DNA from: an uncultured Candidatus Saccharibacteria bacterium
Lineage (GTDB): Bacteria; Patescibacteriota; Minisyncoccia; Phycocordibacterales; PALSA-1337
NCBI GenBank assembly: GCA_964459225.1
Contig: CAYWKB010000001.1
Location: 289,318 to 353,317, forward strand
Direction: 5' to 3'
DNA length: 64,000 bases
Below, in pieces: positions 2,522 to 60,132 of the stretch (within the stretch, counting starts at the first letter, position 1; the number at the start of each line of letters is the position of its first letter). The notes under the pieces are model-generated. The model saw nothing but the letters and a program-made list of their open reading frames with translations, was not told the DNA's origin and ran no database searches. The translations under genes and the position numbers were made by a program.

Positions 2522-5018
2522 GACACTTTTTGTATTTTTTACCACTTCCGCAAGGACACGGGTCATTTCTTCCTGCCTCATCTTTTTTTGAAGATGCTCC
2601 ACCTTGATTTGTATTATTGTCGCCATCCCCACTTCCTATTATTTGAGCATTTTCGTGAACCTCTTTTAATTTAACTGGTTCTTGAGTAATTATTCCTCCT
2701 GCAATATGTGGTATTAGCTCTGCTATTTTTAGATTTATTGCATTTTGCATTTCTTTAAATAGTCTCAATCCTTCTTTTTTATATTCAACTAGTGGATCAC
2801 GCTGACCATATGCACGTAGATTTACACTAGATCTTGTATAATCCATTATCTCAAGATGTTCTACCCAATACATATCTATTGTTTGTAATATTATTTGCTT
2901 AGCAACAGTTAAAAATCTCTCCTTTCCAATTTGATTTATTTTGTCCTCGATTATTTTGTTCAAATCTGAAAAAATATGCGTAGATGCTATTTCCTTTATT
3001 TCTTTTTCTATTATATCCATTCCTCCCATCAATATTTCTCTTCGTCTTCCATACACTGTCTTCCTTTGATGATTTAATATGTCATCGTATTCCAAGATAT
3101 GCTTTCTTGAGTCAAAGTTATGTCCTTCGATTTTGGTCTGAGCTGTTTCGAGTGATCTTGTGATTATCTTGTTTTGTATTGGTTCATCTTCTGCAACCCC
3201 AAGTCTTCCCATCAAACTTTTGATAGTATCTGAAGCAAATATTCTCATTAGTGAATCCTCAAGAGAAACAAAAAACTGTGTTGCACCAGGATCTCCTTGT
3301 CTCCCTGAACGACCTCTTAGCTGATTGTCTATTCTTCTTGCCTCATGTCTTTCAGTTCCAAGTACAAACAGTCCGCCAATTGATTTGATTTCTTCATACA
3401 AATCTTTTGTACTAGGATTTCCGCCAAGTTTAATATCAACTCCACGACCTGCCATATTTGTTGCTATCGTCACTGCACCTCTTTTTCCTGCTTGAGCGAT
3501 TATTTCTCCTTCTCTTTCATGATTCTTGGCATTAAGTATTTCATGTTTTACTCCCTCTGCCTTTAAAAATTCTGAAAGGACTTCATTTTTTTCAATTGAA
3601 ACTGTACCAATCAAAACTGGTTGACCTGTTTTATTTAATTCCTTTACCTTTCTTGCTATTGCCTTAAACTTTCCGATTTCAGTTTGGAAAATCAAATCAT
3701 CATGATCCAATCTTTGTATTGTTTTATTTGTAGGAACGACAATAGTTTCTAATCCATATACCTTATAAAATTCCTCACTTGAAGTTGATGCTGTACCTGT
3801 CATTCCTGAAAGTTTTTTATACAATCTAAAATAGTTTTGGAAAGTAATAGATGCATAGGTACGAGATTCTTTTTGAACTGAAACTCCTTCCTTTGCCTCT
3901 ATTGCTTGATGAAGTCCATCTGACCAACGTCTTCCGGGCTGAAGTCTACCTGTAAATGTATCGACTATAACTATTTGATTATCTTTAACAACGTATTCAG
4001 AATTTAAATTATAAAGAGCCTTGGCCTTTACTGCAGTCTCCAAATGATGAACGTATTTGATTCCTTTTTCTGTATAAATATTTTCGACACCCAATTTCTT
4101 CTCGGCTTTTTCTATTCCTTTTGGTGTAAGACTTATATTTCTATTTTTTTCATCAACTGTATAATCTTCATCTTTATTAAATTCACGAACCATAATTGAA
4201 AATATTTGATATAGATTTTCGGAATCAGTTGTTGGTGCAGAAATGATAAGAGGAGTACGCGCTTCGTCTATAAGTATTGAGTCGATTTCGTCCACAATGG
4301 CATAGTTGAAATCTCTTTGACGTAGGGAAGATTCTTCGTATTCTAAATTGTCTCTAAGATAATCAAAGCCGAATTCATTGTTAGTACCATAAGTTATATC
4401 TGCCGAATACGCCTCTCTACGAGATACTGGCTTAAGGAATTCATGAACAACTTTAAATGATCCAAGTTCATCACGCTTTTTATCTAAATTTTCATCTGAT
4501 TCATTTGAAGAAATATGTTTTGGATCATATATAAAAGAAGTTTCGTGATTTATAACTCCAGTTGTAAGTCCTAGAAAATTATATATTTGTCCCATCCAAA
4601 CCGCATCACGTCTTGATAGGTAATCGTTTACAGTTACAACATGTACTCCTTTACCTGAAAGTGCATTCAAATATGCGGGAAGGGTAGCTACCAAAGTTTT
4701 TCCTTCACCTGTTCGCATTTCACCTATATTTCCATAATGTAAAATTGCACCACCTATTATCTGTACATCAAAATGTCTTTGACCAGAAACTCTCTTTGAA
4801 GCCTCGCGTACAACTGCAAATGCTTCAGGGAGTATATTGTTTAGTGATTCACCGCTTGAAATTCTTTTTTTGAATTCTTGAGTTTTATTTTTTAAAGCAT
4901 CGTCTGAAAGGGAAGAGATAGCAGTTTCAAATGAATTAACCTCAACTAAAATAGCCTCATATTTTTTGAGTAGTTTTTTATTATTATCACCAAAAATGTT
5001 TTTTAATGAAAACGCCAT
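2511..5018 (-). CDS. secA: preprotein translocase ATPase SecA
   Basis: 835 aa; DEAD-like motor motifs (GEMRTGEGKT, DEIDSILIDEARTPLIIS) and C-terminal zinc-binding tail CPCGSGKKYKKCHGK. Confidence 0.95.
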   Translation of the reverse strand: MAFSLKNIFGDNNKKLLKKYEAILVEVNSFETAISSLSDDALKNKTQEFKKRISSGESLNNILPEAFAVVREASKRVSGQRHFDVQIIGGAILHYGNIGEMRTGEGKTLVATLPAYLNALSGKGVHVVTVNDYLSRRDAVWMGQIYNFLGLTTGVINHETSFIYDPKHISSNESDENLDKKRDELGSFKVVHEFLKPVSRREAYSADITYGTNNEFGFDYLRDNLEYEESSLRQRDFNYAIVDEIDSILIDEARTPLIISAPTTDSENLYQIFSIMVREFNKDEDYTVDEKNRNISLTPKGIEKAEKKLGVENIYTEKGIKYVHHLETAVKAKALYNLNSEYVVKDNQIVIVDTFTGRLQPGRRWSDGLHQAIEAKEGVSVQKESRTYASITFQNYFRLYKKLSGMTGTASTSSEEFYKVYGLETIVVPTNKTIQRLDHDDLIFQTEIGKFKAIARKVKELNKTGQPVLIGTVSIEKNEVLSEFLKAEGVKHEILNAKNHEREGEIIAQAGKRGAVTIATNMAGRGVDIKLGGNPSTKDLYEEIKSIGGLFVLGTERHEARRIDNQLRGRSGRQGDPGATQFFVSLEDSLMRIFASDTIKSLMGRLGVAEDEPIQNKIITRSLETAQTKIEGHNFDSRKHILEYDDILNHQRKTVYGRRREILMGGMDIIEKEIKEIASTHIFSDLNKIIEDKINQIGKERFLTVAKQIILQTIDMYWVEHLEIMDYTRSSVNLRAYGQRDPLVEYKKEGLRLFKEMQNAINLKIAELIPHIAGGIITQEPVKLKEVHENAQIIGSGDGDNNTNQGGASSKKDEAGRNDPCPCGSGKKYKKCHGK

Positions 5019-5065: not shown

Positions 5066-6085
5066 TTACTCTACATACTCAACCTCAGGGAATATTTCAA
5101 TACTAGTTTCTGCATAAACTTTATCCACCATTTTTTGTGCAAGGTTCACTATGTCATTTGCTGTAGCATTTCCATAATTTATTAAAACCAAAGCCTGACT
5201 TTTATATGTGCCTACTTCACCTATTTTTACTCCACGAAAACCGCAAACATGGTCGAGTATCCATGCTAGTGGAATTTTAACTTTTTTATCGTTAACAGAA
5301 TGCACTATCATATCTGGATACTTTGCTATTAATTCCTTTGCCTTATTTGTTGAGACTATAACATTTTTGAAAAATGAACCTGCGGTACCGTATTGTTTAA
5401 GATCAGGTAACTTCCTTGTTCTAATATCGACAATTGCTTCGCGTACTTGTTTTAAATTTGGTTCGCTAATCTTTTTGAATGAAAAATATTCATCAAGGTC
5501 TTTGTATTTTGTATTCAATTTACCTTTTTTATTTAATTTAAAAATAACTGAAAGTATTACATATCTATTTTTTTCTTTTTTAAAAATACTGTCTCTATAA
5601 TCAAATTTGCAATCTATATTTTTGAATGTCTTGTATTCATCATTTTTAATATCTAAAACATATACTGATTCAATTGTGTCTTTTGCTTCGCTTCCGTATG
5701 CACCAATATTTTGAACAGGAGAGGCTCCTACCGTGCCAGGTATCAATGAAAGATTTTCTAAACCATAATATCCTTTTTCAACAGTTTCTTTTACCAAATT
5801 ATCCCAATCTTCACCTGCCATAGCGGTGACAAGTACATTGTCGCCATCTTCCTTGTATGTAATACCTTTCATTTCAATTTTAATAACAATGCCAGGAAAG
5901 CCAGCATCAGATACTAAAAGATTTGAGCCACCACCTAAAATAAAGAAAGGAATTTTATTTTTCTTAGAAAAACCGATTGCTTCTATGAGTTCATCATCAT
6001 TTGTTGCAATACAAAAATATCGAGCAGGACCGCCGATTTTAAAAGTGGTGTATTTACTGAGAGAAATGTTTTCTAGGATTTTCAT
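5066..6085 (-). CDS. murB: UDP-N-acetylenolpyruvoylglucosamine reductase
   Basis: 339 aa; FAD-binding N-terminus LSKYTTFKIGGPARYF ... ILGGGSNLLVSD typical of MurB. Confidence 0.9.
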   Translation of the reverse strand: MKILENISLSKYTTFKIGGPARYFCIATNDDELIEAIGFSKKNKIPFFILGGGSNLLVSDAGFPGIVIKIEMKGITYKEDGDNVLVTAMAGEDWDNLVKETVEKGYYGLENLSLIPGTVGASPVQNIGAYGSEAKDTIESVYVLDIKNDEYKTFKNIDCKFDYRDSIFKKEKNRYVILSVIFKLNKKGKLNTKYKDLDEYFSFKKISEPNLKQVREAIVDIRTRKLPDLKQYGTAGSFFKNVIVSTNKAKELIAKYPDMIVHSVNDKKVKIPLAWILDHVCGFRGVKIGEVGTYKSQALVLINYGNATANDIVNLAQKMVDKVYAETSIEIFPEVEYVE

Positions 6086-6240
6086 ATAATAGTGTTTTGT
6101 AAAATCAGACGAACCTACGGGGCGGAGAATTTTTATAGACCTAAGGTATATAAAAATTACTACGCCCGCAAGATAGGTGAGACGATTTTACCAATTGCGC
6201 CGAATGTTGACGTACGGGTGTTAGCTCCAAATATAATGTC

Positions 6241-6430
6241 TAAATTAAGATGTGAGTACAGCCGTCCGTCATCACTTGGTACAATCTACAATAATATTAA
6301 CATAATAGATAGTGTGATGCATATGTGTACAAATAGAAACAAAAAACCCTGCCGAGGCAGGATCTTATGTAGACATTTTATTTTGGATTGTACCAACAGC
6401 TAAGTTCAAATATAACTTCAAACTTTATCA
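6241..6430 (+). ncRNA. candidate structured RNA / long imperfect inverted repeat upstream of tuf (identity unknown)
   Basis: Nested long-range complementarity: 6241-6249 tgtgagtac pairs 6421-6429 gtactcaca; 6266-6278 pairs 6374-6386 (13 bp incl. one U-G that is only valid on the plus strand); internal hairpin cctgcc/ggcagg at 6337-6351. No protein-coding signal. Confidence 0.3.
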
Positions 6431-6616
6431 GTACTCACACATGCATATTATAACTCAGAGAGCATATTTTTTGCAAATTATAATAAACATGGATATTTAC
6501 CCAAATAATTATTGACTTATTTATATATCTTATGCTAACATAGCAGTTACGCGTTTTTGCGTTGGCTTTAGTTATCTCTATATTAATAATTATTAATTTT
6601 TTATAAATAAAATATT

Positions 6617-8230: not shown

Positions 8231-8797
8231 ATGAAAACTATAGGAAAATTTATTCTAGGAAGGAAGCTAAGCATGACACAAATCTTCGATAAGGAAGGGG
8301 TAGTTCATCCTGTAACAGTAATTGAAGTATCTCCTATATCAGTTTCTCAAGTAAAAACAAAAGAAAAAGATGGATACACAGCTATTCAATTAACTTCTAA
8401 AAAAGGAAAAATAGAAACAAAAAGAGAGTACAGAACAGAGGACACAACTAAAAATGTTGGCGATGCTCTAGGTGTATTACTTTTCAACGAAGGAGATGAA
8501 ATAGAGGTTAGTGCAATCTCAAAGGGTAAAGGTTTCCAAGGTGTAGTTAAGCGTCATGGTTTCGGTGGAGGACCAAGAACACACGGACAAAAGCACTCAG
8601 AACGTGAACCAGGATCAATCGGAGGAGGACTTAGAAATAAAGTTCCTAAAAAGATGAGAATGGCCGGAAGAATGGGTGGCGACAGAATAACAGTTAAAAA
8701 CCTTAAAGTAGTTCATATTGACTCAGAGGCAAATAAAATGTATATTCGAGGAGCTATTCCTGGAAAAAGAGGAACTGTAGTTGAAATAAAAGGCTAG
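8231..8797 (+). CDS. rplC: 50S ribosomal protein L3
   Basis: GKGFQGVVKRHGFGGGPRTHGQ L3 motif; operon position. Confidence 0.92.
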   Translation: MKTIGKFILGRKLSMTQIFDKEGVVHPVTVIEVSPISVSQVKTKEKDGYTAIQLTSKKGKIETKREYRTEDTTKNVGDALGVLLFNEGDEIEVSAISKGKGFQGVVKRHGFGGGPRTHGQKHSEREPGSIGGGLRNKVPKKMRMAGRMGGDRITVKNLKVVHIDSEANKMYIRGAIPGKRGTVVEIKG

Positions 8798-8816
8798 TTA
8801 AATACCGTAAAATATC

Positions 8817-9467
8817 ATGGAAACAACAATATACAATCAAAAAGGACAAGAAGCAGGAAAGATGAAAATCCCAGAATCAGTTTTTGGTATTCCTTGGAAT
8901 GCTGACTTGGTTCATCAAGTGGTTGTTTCAATGATGTCTAGTGCTCGTCATCCAATCGCAAATACAAAAACTCGCGGTGAAGTAAGTGGAGGAGGTAAAA
9001 AGCCTTGGCAACAAAAAGGAACAGGACGCGCTCGCCACGGTTCTACAAGATCACCTATTTGGGTTGGTGGAGGTATTGCTCATGGACCAAGAGCGGATAA
9101 GAATTATGATAGAAAGGTAAATAAAAAGGCAAAGATAAAGGCGCTATATACTATTCTTTCTAAAAAGTTCAAGGATGGTGAAATATTGTTTGTTGATTCA
9201 CTTTCATTTACTGCTCCAAAGGCTAGTGAAGCTAAATCAACTCTAATGGCTTTTTCAAAAGTAAAAGGATTTGAAAAGTTTGCTACAAAACCTAAAAATG
9301 TTGCTATTCTAGCAATAGAAAAAAAGACTCCTGAAATCATGAAGAGTTTCAAAAATTTTGGAAATCTAGAAGTTGAAGAATTCAGAACAATTAATCCTGT
9401 ATCAGTTCTTAATCATAAATATTTGGTTATTGCTAATGCAAAGGAAAGTCTAAAAAATTTAAAATAA
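8817..9467 (+). CDS. rplD: 50S ribosomal protein L4
   Basis: 216 aa; [16 protein letters not shown]4 motif; position after L3. Confidence 0.9.
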
Positions 9468-21105: not shown

Positions 21106-22335
21106 ATGAATTTAGAAGATTTCAAAAAATTAAATTTACCAGATACTCCTGGGGTGTATTTTTTTAAGGATAATAATAAAAATATACTATATATAGGTAG
21201 AGCAACATCACTCTATGATCGTGTTAAGAGTTATTTTTCAAATGATTTAATACAGACTAGAGGACCGCTTCTTGTTGATATGATTACAAAATCAAATACT
21301 GTTGAATATATTCAAACAGATACTGTACTTGAGGCAATAATACTTGAATCAAATGAAATCAAAAAATATACGCCATACTATAATACAAAGGAAAAGGATA
21401 ATAAAAGCTATAACTTTGTAGTGATTACAGACGAAGAGTTTCCAAGAGTTATAATGGTACGAGGAAGGACTTTGGAAATCTTAAATGAAAAGGATTTGGG
21501 CTATAAGATTAAATATCAGTTTGGGCCGTACCCTCAAGGTAGTTTATTACGTGATGCCTTGAAAATAATAAGAAAAATATTTCCTTTTAGAGATGAAAAG
21601 GCAAAATTAAAACATCAAGAATCATTTTATAAATCACTTGGACTTTCACCAGATACAGAATCTCCAAATGCAAAAAAAGAATATCAAAGGACTATTAGAA
21701 ATCTTGTTTTATTTTTTGAAGGTAAAAAAGGTCAATTGATTAATACCCTTGAAAAAGAAATGAATGAATTTTCTTTGGCTCAAGATTTTGAAAATGCAAA
21801 AAAGACTAGAGATACGCTATATGCATTAACACATATTCAAGACATTTCACTTATTAAAAATGAAATTAATTTTGATAATACTGATAAAGTAGGGTTTAAA
21901 ATTGAATCATATGATATTGCTCATATGTCGGGTCAGGATACTGTCGGTGTTATGACTGTTGTTATTAATGGCGAAATAGAAAAGGGTCAGTATAAGAAAT
22001 TTAAAATAAGTATTGATGCAAATGATGATACTGCAGGGATAAAAGAAATATTAAATAGAAGATTAAAGCATAATGAATGGAGATTTCCTGATCTTATAGT
22101 TATAGATGGTGGACTCGGACAGATTAATTCAGCAAAAGAGGTTTTGAATAATTTAAATATTAATATCCCTATTGTTTCAGTTGTTAAAAATGATGCACAT
22201 AAACCAAGTTATTTTTTGGGTGATGAAGAAATGGCAAAAAAGTATACAAAAGATATTTTGCTTGCAAATAGTGAATCCCATAGATTTGCAATTGCTTATC
22301 ATAAGAAATTAAGGACTAAAAGATTTATTAGGTAA
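21106..22335 (+). CDS. uvrC: excinuclease ABC subunit C, short form lacking the C-terminal (HhH)2 domain
   Basis: 409 aa; GIY-YIG (PGVYFFKDNNKNILYIGRATSLYDRVKSYF), UVR motif, RNase H-like endonuclease region (DLIVIDGGLGQINSAKEVL); ends without an HhH domain. Confidence 0.72.
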   Translation: MNLEDFKKLNLPDTPGVYFFKDNNKNILYIGRATSLYDRVKSYFSNDLIQTRGPLLVDMITKSNTVEYIQTDTVLEAIILESNEIKKYTPYYNTKEKDNKSYNFVVITDEEFPRVIMVRGRTLEILNEKDLGYKIKYQFGPYPQGSLLRDALKIIRKIFPFRDEKAKLKHQESFYKSLGLSPDTESPNAKKEYQRTIRNLVLFFEGKKGQLINTLEKEMNEFSLAQDFENAKKTRDTLYALTHIQDISLIKNEINFDNTDKVGFKIESYDIAHMSGQDTVGVMTVVINGEIEKGQYKKFKISIDANDDTAGIKEILNRRLKHNEWRFPDLIVIDGGLGQINSAKEVLNNLNINIPIVSVVKNDAHKPSYFLGDEEMAKKYTKDILLANSESHRFAIAYHKKLRTKRFIR

Positions 22336-22428
22336 AAATGGACTCGTCGACTTGCGCTCGGGAGATATTTTTTCTTCAATTAATTTCAGAAAAAACACTC
22401 CCTCACCGTGCCGAGTCTCATTTTTACT
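22328..22428 (+). repeat. structured repeat element, copy 1 (conserved flanks, variable central hairpin, U-tract)
   Basis: 36-nt 5' flank taggtaaaaatggactcgtcgacttgcgctcgggag and 29-nt 3' flank ctccctcaccgtgccgagtctcattttta are identical to copy 2. Centre is hairpin ttttttct/agaaaaaa. P1 gactcg/cgagtc, P2 gggag/ctccc. Confidence 0.55.
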
Positions 22429-22463
22429 AATATTACTTCATTTCATCTGCTATAATATATCTC

Positions 22464-23429
22464 ATGCATAGAATACGTGTTGGAGTTTTGCGTGGAGGTC
22501 CGAGCAATGAATACGATGTGTCTTTAAATACTGGAGCTACTGTTCTTGGTAATCTTTCTCCTGAAAAATACAATGTAAAAGATATTTTGATAGATAAAAA
22601 TGGTGTCTGGCATTTGCATGGTATTCCTAGATTGCCTCATGAAGTACTTGCAAATCTCGATGTTGTTTTTAATGCTTTACATGGCGAATATGGTGAGGAC
22701 GGAAAGGTTCAACATATTTTGGAAACTCATGGCATTCCTTATACTGGTTCAAATTCATTTGCTTCTGCAATTGGAATGAATAAACAGATGTCAAAAGATG
22801 TTTATAAGAAAAATAATATCAAAACTCCTGACTCTATTCTTTTGGAATCTCTTTCTGATTTGAGTAAAAATGTTCATGAAATCTTTAAAAAATATCCTCT
22901 ACCTGTTGTGGTTAAACCAACTTCGGGCGGTTCATCTGTTGGTGTTGATCTGGTCTATGATTATAAATATCTAGATGATGCTATAAAAAAGGCATTTGAA
23001 CATTCTCGTTCTGTTATGATTGAAGAATATATAAAAGGTAGGGAAGCCACCTGTGGTGTTGTTGATAATTATCGTGAAAAAGATTTCTATACCTTACCTC
23101 CTATTGAAATTAGACATAATAATAAGTTTTTTGATTATGATGCTAAATATGGTGGTAAAAGTGAGGAAATTGTTCCGGGATATTTTACTGATGAGGAAAA
23201 AAGGGAAATCGAGAGATTGTCTGTTGAGGCTCATAAGGCTCTTGGTATGAGGCATTATTCTCGTTCGGATTTTATTATTCATCCTAGTCGGGGTATATTT
23301 ATTTTGGAGACTAATTCTCTACCTGGTTTGACTAAGGAAAGTCTTATTCCTAAGGCATTGCATGCTGTTGGGGCTTCTATTTCTCATTTCCTCGATCATA
23401 TTATTGAGCTTGCAATAAGGAGGAAATAA
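22464..23429 (+). CDS. ddl: D-alanine--D-alanine ligase
   Basis: 321 aa; ATP-grasp with N-terminal RIRVGVLRGGPSNEYDVSL typical of Ddl. Confidence 0.9.
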   Translation: MHRIRVGVLRGGPSNEYDVSLNTGATVLGNLSPEKYNVKDILIDKNGVWHLHGIPRLPHEVLANLDVVFNALHGEYGEDGKVQHILETHGIPYTGSNSFASAIGMNKQMSKDVYKKNNIKTPDSILLESLSDLSKNVHEIFKKYPLPVVVKPTSGGSSVGVDLVYDYKYLDDAIKKAFEHSRSVMIEEYIKGREATCGVVDNYREKDFYTLPPIEIRHNNKFFDYDAKYGGKSEEIVPGYFTDEEKREIERLSVEAHKALGMRHYSRSDFIIHPSRGIFILETNSLPGLTKESLIPKALHAVGASISHFLDHIIELAIRRK

Positions 23430-23460
23430 TGTAGAATAATTTTGTTCGGTTATATTGAGT

Positions 23461-23561
23461 CTAGGTAAAAATGGACTCGTCGACTTGCGCTCGGGAGTAC
23501 TTTTATTTGTTCGCAAGCTCAAAATAAAAGTCTCCCTCACCGTGCCGAGTCTCATTTTTAC
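23461..23561 (+). repeat. structured repeat element, copy 2
   Basis: Same flanks as copy 1; the centre is replaced by an unrelated hairpin acttttatttg/caaaataaaagt (loop ttcgcaagct) that preserves the fold. Confidence 0.55.
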
Positions 23562-23576
23562 AAAAAATAAACACAT

Positions 23577-23649
23577 GGGCCCGTAGCTCAGTTGGTAGAG
23601 CAATCGCTTTGCAAGCGAAAGGTCAGGAGTTCGAATCTCCTCGGGTCCA
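23577..23649 (+). tRNA. tRNA-Ala (anticodon UGC)
   Basis: Cloverleaf: acceptor gggcccg/cgggtcc with G3:U70 Ala identity pair, D-arm gctcagttggtagagc, anticodon loop ttTGCaa, T-arm aggag-ttcgaat-ctcct, discriminator A; CCA not encoded. Confidence 0.92.
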
Positions 23650-23663
23650 CAACTAAAGAAAAA

Positions 23664-23690
23664 GCTGGCACATGCCAGTTTTTTATTTTG
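23664..23690 (+). terminator. Rho-independent terminator after tRNA-Ala
   Basis: ctggca-ca-tgccag hairpin followed by ttttttatttt. Confidence 0.6.
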
Positions 23691-23798
23691 TCTTGGATCT
23701 TGAGATTAGATGAATATTATTAATAGTGGGTGTTAAAAAGATTAAATAGTTTTTGTATTTACTATTTAAAAATCACTCTCAATAAGTTATTTTCTAAA

Positions 23799-23831: not shown

Positions 23832-23935
23832 AACAGAATAGTCACCCAACTAAACTACATTATCTGAAAAGTTTTCATGATTTGTTGATTATGAAAATGG
23901 GAAAGTCCCTCAGAGGTGTTGTATGGGGTTAAAAT
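23832..23935 (+). repeat. 104-nt conserved 5' leader, copy 1
   Basis: Identical to 24680-24783 except one base (TAA vs TAC, 6 nt before the ATG). Contains hairpin ttttcatga/ttatgaaaa and SD-like GGGG 9 nt before the ATG. Identity begins at the predicted start site and ends at the start codon. Confidence 0.6.
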
Positions 23936-24559
23936 ATGGAATCGTCTTTTACCCGTGAAAGTATTTCCAGGTCTATAGACCAAGTGAGTCTAGAACTCCA
24001 GTCTAATTGGGGCTCAAGAAATAATTGTCGTCCCGGAGGATTTGCAAATGAATACTGCAGATTAATAAATAAAAGGGAGTCATTAAGTATTGCCTTCAAG
24101 GTTTTTGTCGCTCTGTTTGTGTTGTTTGCAATAGTGGCAATCATCTCAATTTTTAAGGGCGGCTCAATATGGTATATGGTAGTTACGATTGTCATTGGAT
24201 TGATAGCTTTGTGTTTATCTTGCTTGGTCGAATATACCGATCATGAACTTAATGAACTTATTTTATTGATAAAGCAATTCAATTCTGATTTTATTGATCT
24301 GATGATTCCTGTCAGTGTCAATAAGCCTATCGATAAACAGTATTTAATCGACCATGTGACATCACTAGCAATTGCGTGTCGTGAATGCATATCAGCTGGT
24401 GCTGGGCATCTTAACTTAACAGGTGATATTGATGAACAGATATTTATAATCCATAGAGCCACCGACCGCTACTGTAAAGCAGTTAACGGTGCTGCGAAGT
24501 TTGGTGTTAAAATAACCGGCGAAATGATCTCTTCGGGAATTGCCACCAGACATTCATGA
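23936..24559 (+). CDS. hypothetical membrane protein (two TM helices plus C-terminal soluble domain), paralog A
   Basis: 207 aa; hydrophobic segments FKVFVALFVLFAIVAIISIF and WYMVVTIVIGLIALCLSCLV; C-terminal FGVKITGEM motif shared with paralog B. Confidence 0.55.
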   Translation: MESSFTRESISRSIDQVSLELQSNWGSRNNCRPGGFANEYCRLINKRESLSIAFKVFVALFVLFAIVAIISIFKGGSIWYMVVTIVIGLIALCLSCLVEYTDHELNELILLIKQFNSDFIDLMIPVSVNKPIDKQYLIDHVTSLAIACRECISAGAGHLNLTGDIDEQIFIIHRATDRYCKAVNGAAKFGVKITGEMISSGIATRHS

Positions 24560-24679: not shown

Positions 24680-24783
24680 AACAGAATAGTCACCCAACTA
24701 AACTACATTATCTGAAAAGTTTTCATGATTTGTTGATTATGAAAATGGGAAAGTCCCTCAGAGGTGTTGTATGGGGTTACAAT
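24680..24783 (+). repeat. 104-nt conserved 5' leader, copy 2
   Basis: See copy 1. Here the leader mini-ORF MKMGKSLRGVVWG reads through (TAC) in frame into the main ORF, so the maximal ORF starts at 24730. Confidence 0.6.
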
Positions 24784-25344
24784 ATGGGCAAGAAAATTAA
24801 TTTAGCTAAATTCAAAGTAGCACTAGACCGAATAGACTCTGAGCTAGTCAGGATATGGAATGAAAAATACAGTTGCGACTTGAAAGATCTTCCCAGGCGG
24901 TATAATGATTGTAGGGCAAAGAGATCTGAATTTAAACTTAAAGAAGGAAAACGGATTTTCTTCATCGTGCTCACTTTTTTCCTTACTATGTATTTTAAAG
25001 GGAATAGTTATGAGCCATCATTGCCGGCGTTTCTGTCTGTGTCCGCCTGTATCATCCTGTTTCTTGAATGGCTCCTTTTTTCTCAAAGCATAAGCATAGA
25101 AAAAAGGAATCTGACAGAAAGCCTTGAAAGAACAGAGCTCATGATCAAAAATTTCATATTCGCTGTGAATTCACTGCTTATTGCAGACCCAGTTGCGATA
25201 ACTACGCAGACAATAATACAACGTGCGAGAGAGATTCATAATAATTTCTCTGAGAATCAAATAACTATAAACAGAGCATACATATGCTTTGAAAGATCAG
25301 CTGAGTCATTTGGTGTTAAGGTCAGTGAGTTGACTCTAAAGTAA
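24784..25344 (+). CDS. hypothetical membrane protein, paralog B (start at position-equivalent ATG; in-frame extension to 24730 possible)
   Basis: Same architecture as paralog A (2 TM: IFFIVLTFFLTMYF and AFLSVSACIILFLEWLLF; C-terminal SFGVKVSELT) but strongly diverged. Confidence 0.5.
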   Translation: MGKKINLAKFKVALDRIDSELVRIWNEKYSCDLKDLPRRYNDCRAKRSEFKLKEGKRIFFIVLTFFLTMYFKGNSYEPSLPAFLSVSACIILFLEWLLFSQSISIEKRNLTESLERTELMIKNFIFAVNSLLIADPVAITTQTIIQRAREIHNNFSENQITINRAYICFERSAESFGVKVSELTLK

Positions 25345-56774: not shown

Positions 56775-56808
56775 ATCACCATTCCGGAGACGGGGTGGTG
56801 ATTTTTTA
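56775..56808 (+). terminator. Rho-independent terminator (family member 2; homolog of 55741-55777)
   Basis: atcaccattccg-gaga-cggggtggtgat with U-G pairs at the same two positions, then tttttt; abuts the dnaE stop. Confidence 0.55.
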
Positions 56809-59800
56809 TACCAAAACCTTTACATTATCTATCAAAATACTTTTCTGACCATTTCTTTCTGATACCTTTCCTTTTACCGCCAGACATTTATCAGCCACAA
56901 ATGCAATTTTAAATTGTGCTAGGACTTTTGGAAATACTACTGTATCTATTTCACCTGTAAAATCTGAAACCTTTACAAATGCCATTGCATCTCCTTTTTT
57001 TGTGTTCAAGGATCTTATTTCTGTAACTATACATGCAATCATAACTTCTGTTCCATCTTTTAATTCTTCCTTTAATTTTTTTATATTCATGTCTCGCTTT
57101 TGTATTGTCTCTCTGTATTTATCTAGTGGATGTCCGGAAATATACAATCCTAAAAGCTCTTTTTCCCATGCTAACTTTTCTTTTACATCTGCATTTGGTA
57201 CTTCTTCGAGTTTTAGACTTGGCAGGGTAGATGAATCTGACATTAATCCCCACAGTGAATCTTGATTATCTGCCTGCTTTCCTTTTTCTTTATTATATGC
57301 GAGTAATGTTTCGATATTTCCAAGTAATAGTCCTCTATCATGTCCAAAACTATCCAATGCTCCTGCTTTTATTAGTGCTTCTAATGATTTTTTATTTAGA
57401 TTTTTGTCCTTTACTCTGTCTAGGAAATCCACCAAAGATGTAAATCTTCCACCACGCTTCCTCTCTTCAATTATTGCTGTTGAAATTCCTTGACCAAAGT
57501 TTTTGATTGTTACTAGTCCGAAGCGGATGGTGTCTTTCGGCTCGGGAATAGTGTCTCCTCCTGGCCCTGCGAAACTCGCTTCGCTATCGCTACGCTCAGA
57601 CAGTCCTCGGGCCATCGAAGACACTATTCCCGAGCCTTTGACCACCGTAAACTGACTAAAACTTTCATTTATATCGGGTGGAAGTATGGGAATATTCATT
57701 CTTTTACATTCACCGATTATTTCTGCTATTTTTTCTACATCACCTGCATCTGCTGTAAGTACGGCTGACATATATATAGCAGGGAAATTTGCTTTCATAT
57801 ATGCAGTTTGATATGCGACTAATCCATAACTCGCGGCATGGGACTTATTAAATCCGTAAGCAGCAAAGGGCTCAATTAATTTCCAAAGTGTATTGGCATC
57901 TTTTTTCTTCATTCCATTTTTTACTAGTCCGGACATAAGCTTTTCTTTTTGCTCTTCCATTTCTTTTGGAATCTTTTTTCCCATTGCCTTACGTAGCTTA
58001 TCTGCCTCAAGCCATGAATATCCTCCAAGCTTAATAGCAATCATCATAACGTCATCCTGATAGGTTATAACTCCATAAGACATGTCCAAAATATCTTTCA
58101 TTCTTGGATCCAAATACTCTATTTTTGAATTATCATGCTTTCGTTCTATATATTGAGGAATTGATTCTAGTGGTCCTGGACGATATAGGGCTACCATGGC
58201 GTTTATGTCGTGTATTCTTGATGGCTTTAGATCAACTAGGAATTTTGTCATACCAGTTCCATTTAGCTGGAACACTCCTGTTGTTTCTCCACGAGCCAAC
58301 ATTTCAAATGTCTTTGTATCGTCTCTTGGTATATTTTCAATATCAATTTCAATATTTTCTATTTTCTTTACTCTATCTACCGCATCGGCAAGTATTGAAA
58401 GATTTTTGATTCCCAAAAAGTCGAATTTCAAAAGTCCTACACCGTCTTCACCGACTGCATGCATATCATATTGGGTGATGATTTTTTTGACTGGATTTCC
58501 ATTTGCGTCTTCTTTGCTTTTGGTATCGTATTGAAGTGGTACAAATTCGGTCAGTGGTTCAGGAGCAATAACAACACCGGCAGCGTGAACAGAAATGTGT
58601 CTTGCACAGCCTTCTATTTTTTTTGCCATGTCTATTATTTTTCGTGTATCTTCTTCTTTTTCATACGCTTCTTTTAATTCTGCTACTTCAGTTAGAGCAC
58701 GATCAATAGTCATGGGGAAACCTTGCGCACCAAGAGGAATGAGTTTTGATATTCTATCTGCAACTGCGTACTCATATCCCATAGCACGTGCAATATCACG
58801 CACAGCACCTTTTGCCATCATAGTTCCAAATGTTCCTATTTGCGCCACATGATCATGGCCATACTTTTTTCTTGCATAATCAATAACCTCATCTCGTCTA
58901 TTATCGGCAAAGTCCATATCGATATCGGGAGCTGACGGTCTTTCGGGATTTAGAAATCTTTCGAAGGGAAGTTTAAAGGCAAGCGGATCTACATTTGTAA
59001 TTCTTGTTACATAAGTTGTAAGTGAGCCGGCAACGGAACCTCGAATATTTGTAAGTATTCCATTTTCATGTGCGTATTTTAAAAGATCAGATACCACTAG
59101 GAAATACTGCGCATATCCCTTATCTTTTATAACTTTTAATTCATATTCAAGTCTATCCACAACTTCCTTACTCATTTCCAAACCTCTTTTCGGTATTCCT
59201 TCATATGCCAATCTTTTTAATTCGTCATCATGAGATAGGCCACTTTCAACAATAAATTTTGGAAAATACCATTTACCTAATGTTAATTCTAGATTGCATT
59301 CATTTGCGATTTTCACAGTATTGTCTAGCGCTTCGGGAATATCTCGGAAAAGTTCTTCAGCCTTTTCACTTGAAATAAATGAAAAATCTTCTTCATTTTC
59401 ATCACCATTAATATTTGTATTTGATGAATTCCTATCTGACATATCGCCTGCAGTGTTAACAAGTGTTAGCATTTCACGAGCAGATCTATCATCTGAATTT
59501 ATATAGTAAACATCTTGTCCAGCTACTATTTGTGTATTTGTTTCTTTTGCTAATTTGATTAATTGTTGCATTAAACCTTCATGACCTTGTATTTCATTAT
59601 GTCTTGTTATTTCAATATAAAAATTATCAGCGCCGTATACTTTTTTATAATATTCAATATGTTCTTTTGCTTTTTCTACATTTTTATTTTTCAATGCTGT
59701 TGAAATTTCACTAGAAAAAGAAGGAGCAATACAAATCAAATCAGAATTATATTTTTCTATTAATTCTCTATCAATACGAGGCTTATAATAAAATCCTTCA

Positions 59801-60132
59801 AAATATGAATACGTCACAAGCTTCACAAGATTTTTGTATCCCGCATGATTTTTTGCAAGTAAAACTAGACGATTGCGTCTATTATCAATACCTGCTTGCA
59901 TGTCCTTTCGAGTTCTAATAGCGGTATAGAAATCAACACCGATAATAGGTTTAATACCTTTTTTCTTTGCAGTTTTATAAAATTCAATAGCACCATACAT
60001 ATTACCAGCATCAGTAAGAGCAAGGGCAGGCATATTAAGCTCTTTTGCACGATCAAGTAAATCATCGATTTTAGGCAGGGCATTAAGAAGAGAATAATGA
60101 CTGTGAGTGTGTAGGTGAATAAAGCGAGACAT
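56806..60132 (-). CDS. dnaE: DNA polymerase III alpha subunit
   Basis: 1108 aa; N-terminal PHP domain HLHTHSHYSLL, polymerase core, OB-fold C-terminus. Confidence 0.95.
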   Translation of the reverse strand: MSRFIHLHTHSHYSLLNALPKIDDLLDRAKELNMPALALTDAGNMYGAIEFYKTAKKKGIKPIIGVDFYTAIRTRKDMQAGIDNRRNRLVLLAKNHAGYKNLVKLVTYSYFEGFYYKPRIDRELIEKYNSDLICIAPSFSSEISTALKNKNVEKAKEHIEYYKKVYGADNFYIEITRHNEIQGHEGLMQQLIKLAKETNTQIVAGQDVYYINSDDRSAREMLTLVNTAGDMSDRNSSNTNINGDENEEDFSFISSEKAEELFRDIPEALDNTVKIANECNLELTLGKWYFPKFIVESGLSHDDELKRLAYEGIPKRGLEMSKEVVDRLEYELKVIKDKGYAQYFLVVSDLLKYAHENGILTNIRGSVAGSLTTYVTRITNVDPLAFKLPFERFLNPERPSAPDIDMDFADNRRDEVIDYARKKYGHDHVAQIGTFGTMMAKGAVRDIARAMGYEYAVADRISKLIPLGAQGFPMTIDRALTEVAELKEAYEKEEDTRKIIDMAKKIEGCARHISVHAAGVVIAPEPLTEFVPLQYDTKSKEDANGNPVKKIITQYDMHAVGEDGVGLLKFDFLGIKNLSILADAVDRVKKIENIEIDIENIPRDDTKTFEMLARGETTGVFQLNGTGMTKFLVDLKPSRIHDINAMVALYRPGPLESIPQYIERKHDNSKIEYLDPRMKDILDMSYGVITYQDDVMMIAIKLGGYSWLEADKLRKAMGKKIPKEMEEQKEKLMSGLVKNGMKKKDANTLWKLIEPFAAYGFNKSHAASYGLVAYQTAYMKANFPAIYMSAVLTADAGDVEKIAEIIGECKRMNIPILPPDINESFSQFTVVKGSGIVSSMARGLSERSDSEASFAGPGGDTIPEPKDTIRFGLVTIKNFGQGISTAIIEERKRGGRFTSLVDFLDRVKDKNLNKKSLEALIKAGALDSFGHDRGLLLGNIETLLAYNKEKGKQADNQDSLWGLMSDSSTLPSLKLEEVPNADVKEKLAWEKELLGLYISGHPLDKYRETIQKRDMNIKKLKEELKDGTEVMIACIVTEIRSLNTKKGDAMAFVKVSDFTGEIDTVVFPKVLAQFKIAFVADKCLAVKGKVSERNGQKSILIDNVKVLV

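Follow-up and report, generated by a model that had tools for sequence, protein, structure and literature searches.

Several kinds of small palindromic repeat have been described in bacteria, including the enterobacterial repetitive intergenic consensus (ERIC), the Rickettsia palindromic elements (RPE), the Correia repeats of Neisseria and the pneumococcal SPRITE (PMC10969869, PMC3184786, PMC3049150). Here, we analyzed a 64-kb stretch of DNA from an uncultured Candidatus Saccharibacteria bacterium (contig CAYWKB010000001.1, positions 289,318 to 353,317; hereafter, the window), in which a preliminary description, made from the letters alone, had pointed to two elements of about 100 nt with identical arms and different central hairpins on either side of the gene ddl. 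The two elements proved to belong to a family of 11 copies at nine sites, three of the copies being in the window and eight on contigs of related Patescibacteria. The explanation that we favor, with a probability of roughly 0.6, is a new family of palindromic intergenic repeats similar in kind to ERIC, RPE and the transposable elements of the miniature inverted-repeat type (MITEs), likely mobile and subject to patchy gene conversion. The best fit is to a family that is undescribed but of a known kind, in a narrow clade of Patescibacteria. The literature that we searched contained no account of dispersed repeats or MITEs in bacteria of the candidate phyla radiation (CPR, or Patescibacteria).

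The ERIC sequences of enterobacteria, also called intergenic repeat units (IRU), are imperfect palindromes of ≈127 bp, usually regarded as MITE-like, and have reported effects on the mRNA level (PMC10969869, PMC3184786). The present family shares with them a hairpin that runs the full length of the element, a location in co-transcribed intergenic spacers in both orientations, and sites at which the element is either present or absent. It differs from ERIC in belonging to a different phylum, in its length of 95–102 nt, in combining covarying helices with an asymmetric core of conserved sequence, and in a seemingly low copy number of ≈3 per 64–77 kb; no sequence relation to ERIC or RPE is expected. 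The RPEs are likewise palindromic repeats, of 100–150 nt, in a reduced, host-dependent genome and with no known cognate transposase, and lie beside or inside genes, RNA genes included (PMC10969869). RPEs are typically found in frame within open reading frames (ORFs), however, whereas the present family is intergenic, with one copy only donating the last codon and the stop codon of uvrC. The Correia repeats and the pneumococcal SPRITE, BOX and RUP elements are also small, non-autonomous repeats with inverted ends that form hairpins in transcripts; some Correia repeats are cut by RNase III, and SPRITE resembles rho-independent terminators (PMC10969869, PMC3049150). Correia repeats are marked by a TA duplication and by terminal repeats of 26 bp, while no duplication is seen in the present family; SPRITE has canonical terminator geometry, whereas this family sits where termination would do harm. 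Finally, the repetitive extragenic palindromes (REPs) and their paired form, REPINs, which are mobilized by RAYT (HUH) transposases, offer the likeness of a hairpin recognized in single-stranded form and of paired arms that make a rod of ≈100 nt. Such single-stranded recognition would explain a conserved core combined with structure-preserving change. However, the window yielded no RAYT or Y1 transposase, the arms of the family are not copies of one short palindrome, and REPs are G+C-rich, ≈35 nt long and far more numerous.

The two elements around ddl, and a third that was found elsewhere in the window, are located as follows.

22329–22427, plus strand: copy 1, subtype A, with the 5′ arm at 22329–22364, an atypical center at 22365–22397 and the 3′ arm at 22398–22427
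23462–23561, plus strand: copy 2, subtype A, with the 5′ arm at 23462–23497, a center typical of the family at 23498–23531 and the 3′ arm at 23532–23561
6098–6192, minus strand: copy 3, subtype B, diverged, of the form GGTAAAATC...CTTGCGGGCGTAG...TTCTCCGCCCCGT...GATTTTAC

The 5′ arm, TAGGTAAAAATGGACTCGTCGACTTGCGCTCGGGAG, is the same in copies 1 and 2 at 36/36 positions and the 3′ arm, CTCCCTCACCGTGCCGAGTCTCATTTTTAC, at 30/30 (66/66 combined). The preliminary description had the 5′ arm right at 36 nt, but made the 3′ arm 29 nt, one base too short, and placed the start of copy 1 at 22328 instead of 22329. When up to three mismatches were allowed, no other occurrence of either arm was found in the window, and dinucleotide shuffles gave no matches. 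The centers, 33 nt in copy 1 and 34 nt in copy 2, align at 21 of 36 positions, and each forms its own hairpin despite the small likeness in sequence, as had been claimed. The whole of copy 1 folds into one rod (−32.9 kcal/mol, z = −6.0), as does the whole of copy 2 (−37.1 kcal/mol, z = −5.4), and 0/200 shuffles were as good in either case. The two helices previously proposed between the arms, P1 and P2, were correct, and a 9-bp stem outside them, GUAAAAAUG/CAUUUUUAC, extends the pairing. Going inward, this outer stem is followed by GACUCG/CGAGUC, a bulge on the 5′ side, GCG(C)/(G)UGC, GGGAG/CUCCC and an A/U-rich apical hairpin. The observation of two related elements was thereby confirmed as real and non-random.

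The window was compared with related contigs and loci, which carry labels in the style L001–L217. Homologs of ddl put the window, whose source contig measures 523 kb, among the Patescibacteria. The ddl locus was retrieved from relatives, the species-level ones being labelled Candidatus Taylorbacteria or Paceibacteria. A pattern made from both arms yielded four additional copies on metagenome contigs (L084–L087), and a covariance model, R1, was built from seven copies of subtype A. With filters off, R1 found exactly three copies in the window. It gave 101–114 bits in the sense and 32–34 bits in the antisense direction on copies 1 and 2 (101 and 34 bits for copy 1; 114 bits for copy 2), and the calls of orientation are reliable because of this large difference. 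Copy 3 scored 39.3 bits (E = 1e-7) and has a fold of −33.7 kcal/mol (z = −6.5); 12 nt separate its end from the start codon of murB (6085) downstream. Besides copy 3, R1 found a second copy in L087, a copy between ddl and the tRNA gene in L006 and one upstream of murB in L217; these four make up subtype B, with the core CTTGC[G/T]GGCGTAG ... TCTCCGCC[A/C]CG. The copies outside the window are thus those in L003, L006, L084–L087, L087 again (8781–8879) and L217. Several copies may occur in one genome: three in the window, two in L087 and two on contig SXGQ01179547 (L006 and L217). The preliminary description had proposed a covariance-model search and had made its case depend on further copies and on structure-preserving variation among them, both of which were found.

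Outside this set, the exact pattern of the 5′ arm had no match among 185,579 species genomes, and no copies were found in L088–L093, where ddl is 71–76% identical. Among viral contigs, neither the subtype A pattern nor the specific subtype B pattern had a match; when subtype B was sought with a looser pattern, at least 120 matches appeared, all of them G+C-rich, due to chance and without the CTTGC context. At its gathering thresholds, Rfam 15 matched only the tRNA-Ala in the window, and with E up to 10 over 22200–23750 nothing matched the elements except for a 19-bit chance match of a CRISPR repeat to the center of copy 1, in line with the earlier statement that no known ribozyme or riboswitch is recognizable.

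All copies are intergenic and are found in both orientations relative to transcription. Their contexts and orientations are given here.

Copy 1: past uvrC and 5′ of the ddl promoter, sense
Copy 2, L003 and L006: tRNA-Ala leader, sense
Copy 3 and L217: immediately upstream of murB, sense
L084: spacer between smpB and the transfer-messenger RNA (tmRNA), 12 nt from the tmRNA, antisense
L086: within the 23S–5S spacer, antisense
L087b: ftsA–ftsZ spacer, antisense
L087a: ftsZ–trxB spacer, sense
L085: exactly fills the gap between two convergent genes, sense to one and antisense to the other

At three of the nine sites the element is therefore antisense to the surrounding transcription, where a sequence-specific RNA function is impossible.

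Filled and empty versions of the same site were found among close relatives. At the site of copy 1, L002 (ddl 97% identical) has a 39-nt uvrC–ddl spacer with no trace of an element, while L003 (95%) and L004 (82%) retain only the remnants AAATGAAATTGGGCTC joined to TTAC and GGTAAAATTGGACTCGTTGA joined to TTTTAC, respectively, the interior having been deleted. Upstream of murB, the site is empty in L216 (murB 90% identical), in which ...TTCGGCGCAAT is followed by CAACTC and the ATG; in the window, the same ...TTCGGCGCAAT is followed by T, the 95-nt element, AAAACACTATTAT and the ATG. The flank of ≈130 nt upstream is near base-for-base the same in the two, with the final 95 nt identical. The site is again filled in L217, where murB is just 73% identical. 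Conversely, L087 carries the element in both spacers of ftsA–ftsZ–trxB, whereas those of the window, 39 and 34 nt long, are empty; FtsZ is 81% identical between the two.

The similarity between copies is patchy. The arms of copy 2 agree at 47 of 66 bases (71%) with those of the copy at the corresponding place in L003, although the 60-nt flank upstream is 59/60 (98%) identical between L003 and the window and the ddl DNA is 87% identical. In L006 and L217, which lie on one contig, a contiguous core of ≈57 nt has three differences, and the outer stems are unrelated but still paired. Exchange of tracts between copies accounts for an identical core inside different outer stems, and gene conversion or recombination acting patchily among the dispersed copies accounts for identical arms around a different center without any need for the RNA to be under selection. 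The preliminary description had taken the exchanged center as a compensatory change. However, the center ACTTTTATTTG...CAAAATAAAAGT, common in the family, is found in copy 2, L003, L084 and L086, while that of copy 1 is the outlier, and patchy recombination fits this distribution better.

What the comparison yields is a family with a common, covarying fold, copies in mixed orientation, polymorphic sites and patchy similarity. Among the functions that had been offered for the two elements, a mobile miniature element fits best, since the copies lie in unrelated contexts and close relatives may have a given site either filled or empty. As in MITEs, which measure less than ≈500 bp, the elements are short and non-coding (95–102 nt; an ATG in the 5′ arm is not conserved), carry terminal inverted repeats (the outer 9 bp and a 6-bp stem, formed from both ends in every copy) and are dispersed with insertion polymorphism (empty in L002, in L216 and at the ftsZ flanks of the window). 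As in ERIC and RPE, they are full-length imperfect palindromes in co-transcribed spacers, in both orientations and with compensating changes.

On this mobile-repeat reading, the copies would behave as non-autonomous mobile or recombining DNA in short intergenic spacers, and contiguous tracts would be swapped between copies of one genome. The copies would be co-transcribed with their neighbors, the hairpin being tolerated even in tRNA-Ala, tmRNA and rRNA precursors. Spread would require a trans-acting enzyme that recognizes the folded ends and the core, whereas RNase III cutting, protection of 3′ ends and partial termination would be by-products. We infer this mechanism of spread, since neither a transposase nor a target-site duplication was found.

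Several observations weigh against such a mobile repeat. No transposase, integrase or HUH protein was found among the ORFs of the window, and fuzzy end patterns revealed neither longer elements with the same ends nor solo ends in the related CPR loci that were checked; the comparison covered only ≈0.4 Mb of related DNA. Target-site duplications, expected of MITEs, are absent both from the filled and empty murB sites (GCGCAAT-T... versus GCGCAAT-CAACTC-ATG) and from the uvrC–ddl site, although old insertions may lose them (PMC10969869). Furthermore, the ddl–tRNA-Ala and murB-upstream sites are occupied in genomes with only 73–80% identity of the neighboring proteins, and selection that preserved them through long vertical descent is another possible reading of this. 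Lastly, a conserved asymmetric core amid covarying helices is what one would expect of a ligand made of single-stranded DNA or of a functional RNA, and not of drifting junk.

The fold itself is common to all 11 copies (z = −5.4 to −10.7). As single-stranded DNA or RNA, each forms a rod of ≈40 bp. Its four parts are the outer stem, rich in A/U, of the form G[Y/A]AAAAnnG / CnnUUUU[R/U]C; a second stem, rich in G+C; the sequence-conserved asymmetric core, comprising the 5′-side bulge with CUUGC, GCG/CGU and a helix of 5–6 bp; and an A/T-rich apical hairpin of freely varying sequence. Pair statistics were collected from seven close copies of subtype A over 34 base pairs, with 500 shuffles and with controls in which columns were slid. 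Standard pairs fill 96.6% of the cells and both sides have changed at 12 of the 34 pairs, which was reached by 0/500 shuffles; sliding the partners by 1–3 columns lowers the pairing to ≈50%. The outer stem occurs as GUAAAAAUG/CAUUUUUAC, GCAAAAUUG/CAAUUUUGC, GAAAAACUG/CAGUUUUUC and GUAAAAUCG/CGAUUUUGC, the second stem of subtype A as GACUCG/CGAGUC and GAAUCG/CGAUUC, and the inner helix as GGGAG/CUCCC and GGAAG/CUUCC. Each copy of subtype B has a second stem with a sequence wholly its own, yet always paired: ACCUAU/GUAGGU, GGCUCGUUGC/GCAACUCGC, GAAAAAAUC/GAUUUUUUC and a 20-bp version in L087. The bulge CUUGC is present in 9/11 copies, and the GCG/CGU step is unchanging. Homogenization of one arm by the other would erase an asymmetric core unless it were selected, and the persistence of the core therefore suggests that a protein recognizes the folded element.

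The preliminary description was thus right that the fold is maintained by compensatory change, but its further suggestion of selection on RNA specifically is not supported. Three of nine sites are antisense and, apart from one invariant G·U pair, the remaining cells comprise four G·U and four A·C; this test of the strand is uninformative, and selection may act on either RNA or DNA. A duplicated, cis-acting RNA hairpin under selection, which would part transcripts as an RNase III processing site or a 3′-end stability element and bind a protein through its core, would account for the strong covariation around a sequence-conserved core. It would also fit the location of three of nine sites within precursors of processed stable RNAs, namely in the leaders of tRNA-Ala and tmRNA and in the 23S–5S spacer. 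A rod of ≈40 bp is a substrate for RNase III in either orientation, and the enzyme is encoded in the genome, so that the rod, once transcribed, could plausibly be cut whichever way it is oriented. Correia and ERIC repeats, too, are cut by RNases or alter the mRNA level (PMC10969869). Nevertheless, we consider this explanation unlikely, as the same sites lack the element in close relatives, the core of an antisense copy reads as its complement, so that a sequence-specific RNA ligand fails at three of the nine sites, and the G·U and A·C cells are balanced outside the invariant pair. We give a similarly low probability to the idea that the core (CUUGC, GCG/CGU and the short helix), framed by its covarying helices, serves some new hairpin-dependent system of the CPR as its recognition module. 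This might be either a new class of structure-specific HUH- or recombinase-type mobile element without terminal duplication or a ligand, of RNA or single-stranded DNA, that has been domesticated and delimits stable-RNA and housekeeping transcripts.

Copies 1 and 2 are found in a region with the gene order pth, a short uvrC, ddl and tRNA-Ala(UGC).

21106–22335, plus strand: uvrC, short (409 aa), its reading frame ending inside copy 1 (orthologs have 408–415 aa)
22464–23429, plus strand: ddl, between copies 1 and 2, with its stop codon at 23427–23429
23410–23437, plus strand: promoter-like TTGCAA-16 nt-TAGAAT in the 3′ end of ddl, found by a consensus scan
23577–23650, plus strand: tRNA-Ala (UGC), followed by a canonical terminator at 23659–23684

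The final codon of uvrC and its stop codon TAA (22333–22335) fall within the 5′ arm of copy 1. The earlier claim that both elements start at or next to a stop codon therefore holds for copy 1 but not for copy 2, which starts 33 nt past the ddl stop codon and ends 15 nt 5′ of the tRNA-Ala. The sequence TTGCAN-16/17 nt-TAGAAT is kept in the last codons of ddl in ≈20 relatives, with the tRNA 20–60 nt downstream and no element between, and 23410–23437 is thus probably the tRNA-Ala promoter. In the window, copy 2 separates this promoter from the tRNA, leaves no space for another promoter and would consequently be transcribed within the tRNA-Ala precursor, which speaks against its being an efficient terminator.

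The preliminary description had included an elaborate terminator among its options. If the repeat carried a large intrinsic terminator that worked in both directions, as in SPRITE, this would agree with the G+C-rich stem followed by A(A/U)UUUU in both orientations, and with the position of copy 1, L085 and L087a at the 3′ ends of genes or between convergent genes. It is hard to reconcile, however, with copy 2, located between a conserved tRNA-Ala promoter and its tRNA with 15 nt left, or with the copies 12 nt 5′ of the tmRNA (L084) and inside the 23S–5S spacer (L086), since efficient termination at tRNA, tmRNA and rRNA sites would be harmful. The stem encloses ≈75 nt, whereas a canonical intrinsic terminator is a short G+C-rich hairpin with a loop of 3–8 nt, and a consensus scan that calls the terminator at 23659–23684 after the tRNA-Ala misses the elements. 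Moreover, relatives without copy 1 have no terminator in its place. Efficient termination by these elements is unlikely judging from their sequence and placement, and we regard a terminator as an improbable account of the family. Still less credible is a family of stand-alone small RNA genes, each with its own promoter. A good promoter does lie upstream of copy 2, and R1 separates the strands (101–114 versus 32–34 bits), but that promoter is the one assigned to tRNA-Ala and is present in relatives without the element; the other copies are not preceded by a conserved promoter, and several abut stop or start codons, leaving no space for one.

The same neighborhood bears on the proposal that ddl is an inserted cassette bounded by attC-like recombination sites. 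The elements are imperfect palindromes with a variable middle, two copies on the same strand bracket ddl, and two copies in L087 likewise bracket ftsZ. However, ddl and ftsZ are core genes whose order is conserved with or without the elements; in particular, uvrC–ddl–tRNA-Ala is kept in many relatives, mostly without any element. In addition, the copies around ftsZ are in opposite orientation, whereas attC arrays need a single orientation, and the ends read GG[Y/A]AAAAT ... ATTTT[R/T]C and not RYYYAAC ... GTTRRRY. No integrase was found in the window, and ddl, unlike the promoterless cassettes of integrons, has a −10 of its own, the extended −10 TGCTATAAT at 22448–22456, which is kept in L002–L004. 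(It lies 7 nt 5′ of the ATG, a distance that suggests a leaderless ddl mRNA.) The cassette-site reading is contradicted by these observations and has next to no probability left; given its conserved gene order, ddl is not a cassette.

Genomes of Patescibacteria are among the smallest and most tightly packed in bacteria. A dispersed, structured repeat beside tRNA, tmRNA, rRNA, ddl, murB and ftsZ would mean that even these compact genomes carry active small selfish DNA. Its hairpin, backed by covariation, provides an experimental handle, and the conserved core points to a binding partner. For annotation, the case calls for caution, as identical arms around a different center are no proof of either a riboswitch-like RNA or a cassette site. 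The repeat also breaks assemblies of the organism: L001, a 1,157-bp short-read Logan contig with the exact ddl, begins in copy 1 and finishes in copy 2, its ends thus lying inside the repeats.

Two other candidate features of the elements were rejected. A small ORF from the ATG of the 5′ arm would encode peptides of 30 and 18 aa in copies 1 and 2, with different frames and different stop positions, and its start is TTG, CTG or TCG in other copies. Likewise, a mimic of an anticodon loop beside tRNA-Ala, UCGA-CUUGCGC-UCGG (with the "anticodon" UGC), loses its local stem in L003, L084 and subtype B.

Upstream of the intact tRNA-Ala, incomplete copies of its 5′ part (GGGCCCGTAGCTG...) are found in L004/L005/L009, L012, L026 and L093, those in L004 being in tandem at ≈6040–6150, and in L092 a large serine recombinase (Resolvase and Recombinase domains; 2653–4191) lies right at a truncated tRNA-Ala. 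Together, these fragments and the recombinase suggest repeated integration and excision of some element at tRNA-Ala. Downstream of tRNA-Ala in the window, a direct repeat of 108 nt (99% identical; 23832–23939 and 24680–24787) covers the upstream region and the start of two adjacent, paralogous ORFs of 207 and 204 aa, neither of which has a Pfam match.

Other structured elements were seen around murB. Abutting copy 3, at 6193–6290 on the minus strand, is a rod-like hairpin of 98 nt with regularly spaced mismatches (z = −3.4 on the minus and −4.3 on the plus strand). It is present in single copy, has no Rfam match and is conserved as a tRNA is, 95 nt being 100% identical at the same place upstream of murB in L216 (murB 90% identical) and L217 (73%); it may be a stable RNA or a murB leader. 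Also on the minus strand, at ≈6340–6450, TTGCAA-18 nt-TATAAT resembles a promoter, and past it come a folded stretch of ≈100 nt and a clean terminator, CCTGCCTCGGCAGGGTTTTTT. The unit, which L217 has kept, resembles a small RNA gene; GUGUGAGUAC on its 5′ side has its complement, GUACUCACAU, in the adjacent conserved rod. The tuf–murB spacer, 531 nt in the window, contains in L216 (6341–9746) a reverse transcriptase (RVT_1) beside bAvd, the layout of a diversity-generating retroelement, together with a 240-aa ORF and a PemK toxin, none of which is present in the spacer of the window.

Finally, a 98-nt palindrome at 57539–57636 lies within dnaE (56806–60132, minus strand). It has a perfect 18-bp stem, GGCTCGGGAATAGTGTCT/AGACACTATTCCCGAGCC, with z = −6.4 and −8.9, and adds ≈33 aa in frame between FTVVK and IRFGL in the HHH_6 domain, a position at which relatives have 5–70 unrelated residues. 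It looks like an RPE-like in-frame insertion, more so than any member of the intergenic family, to which its sequence is unrelated.

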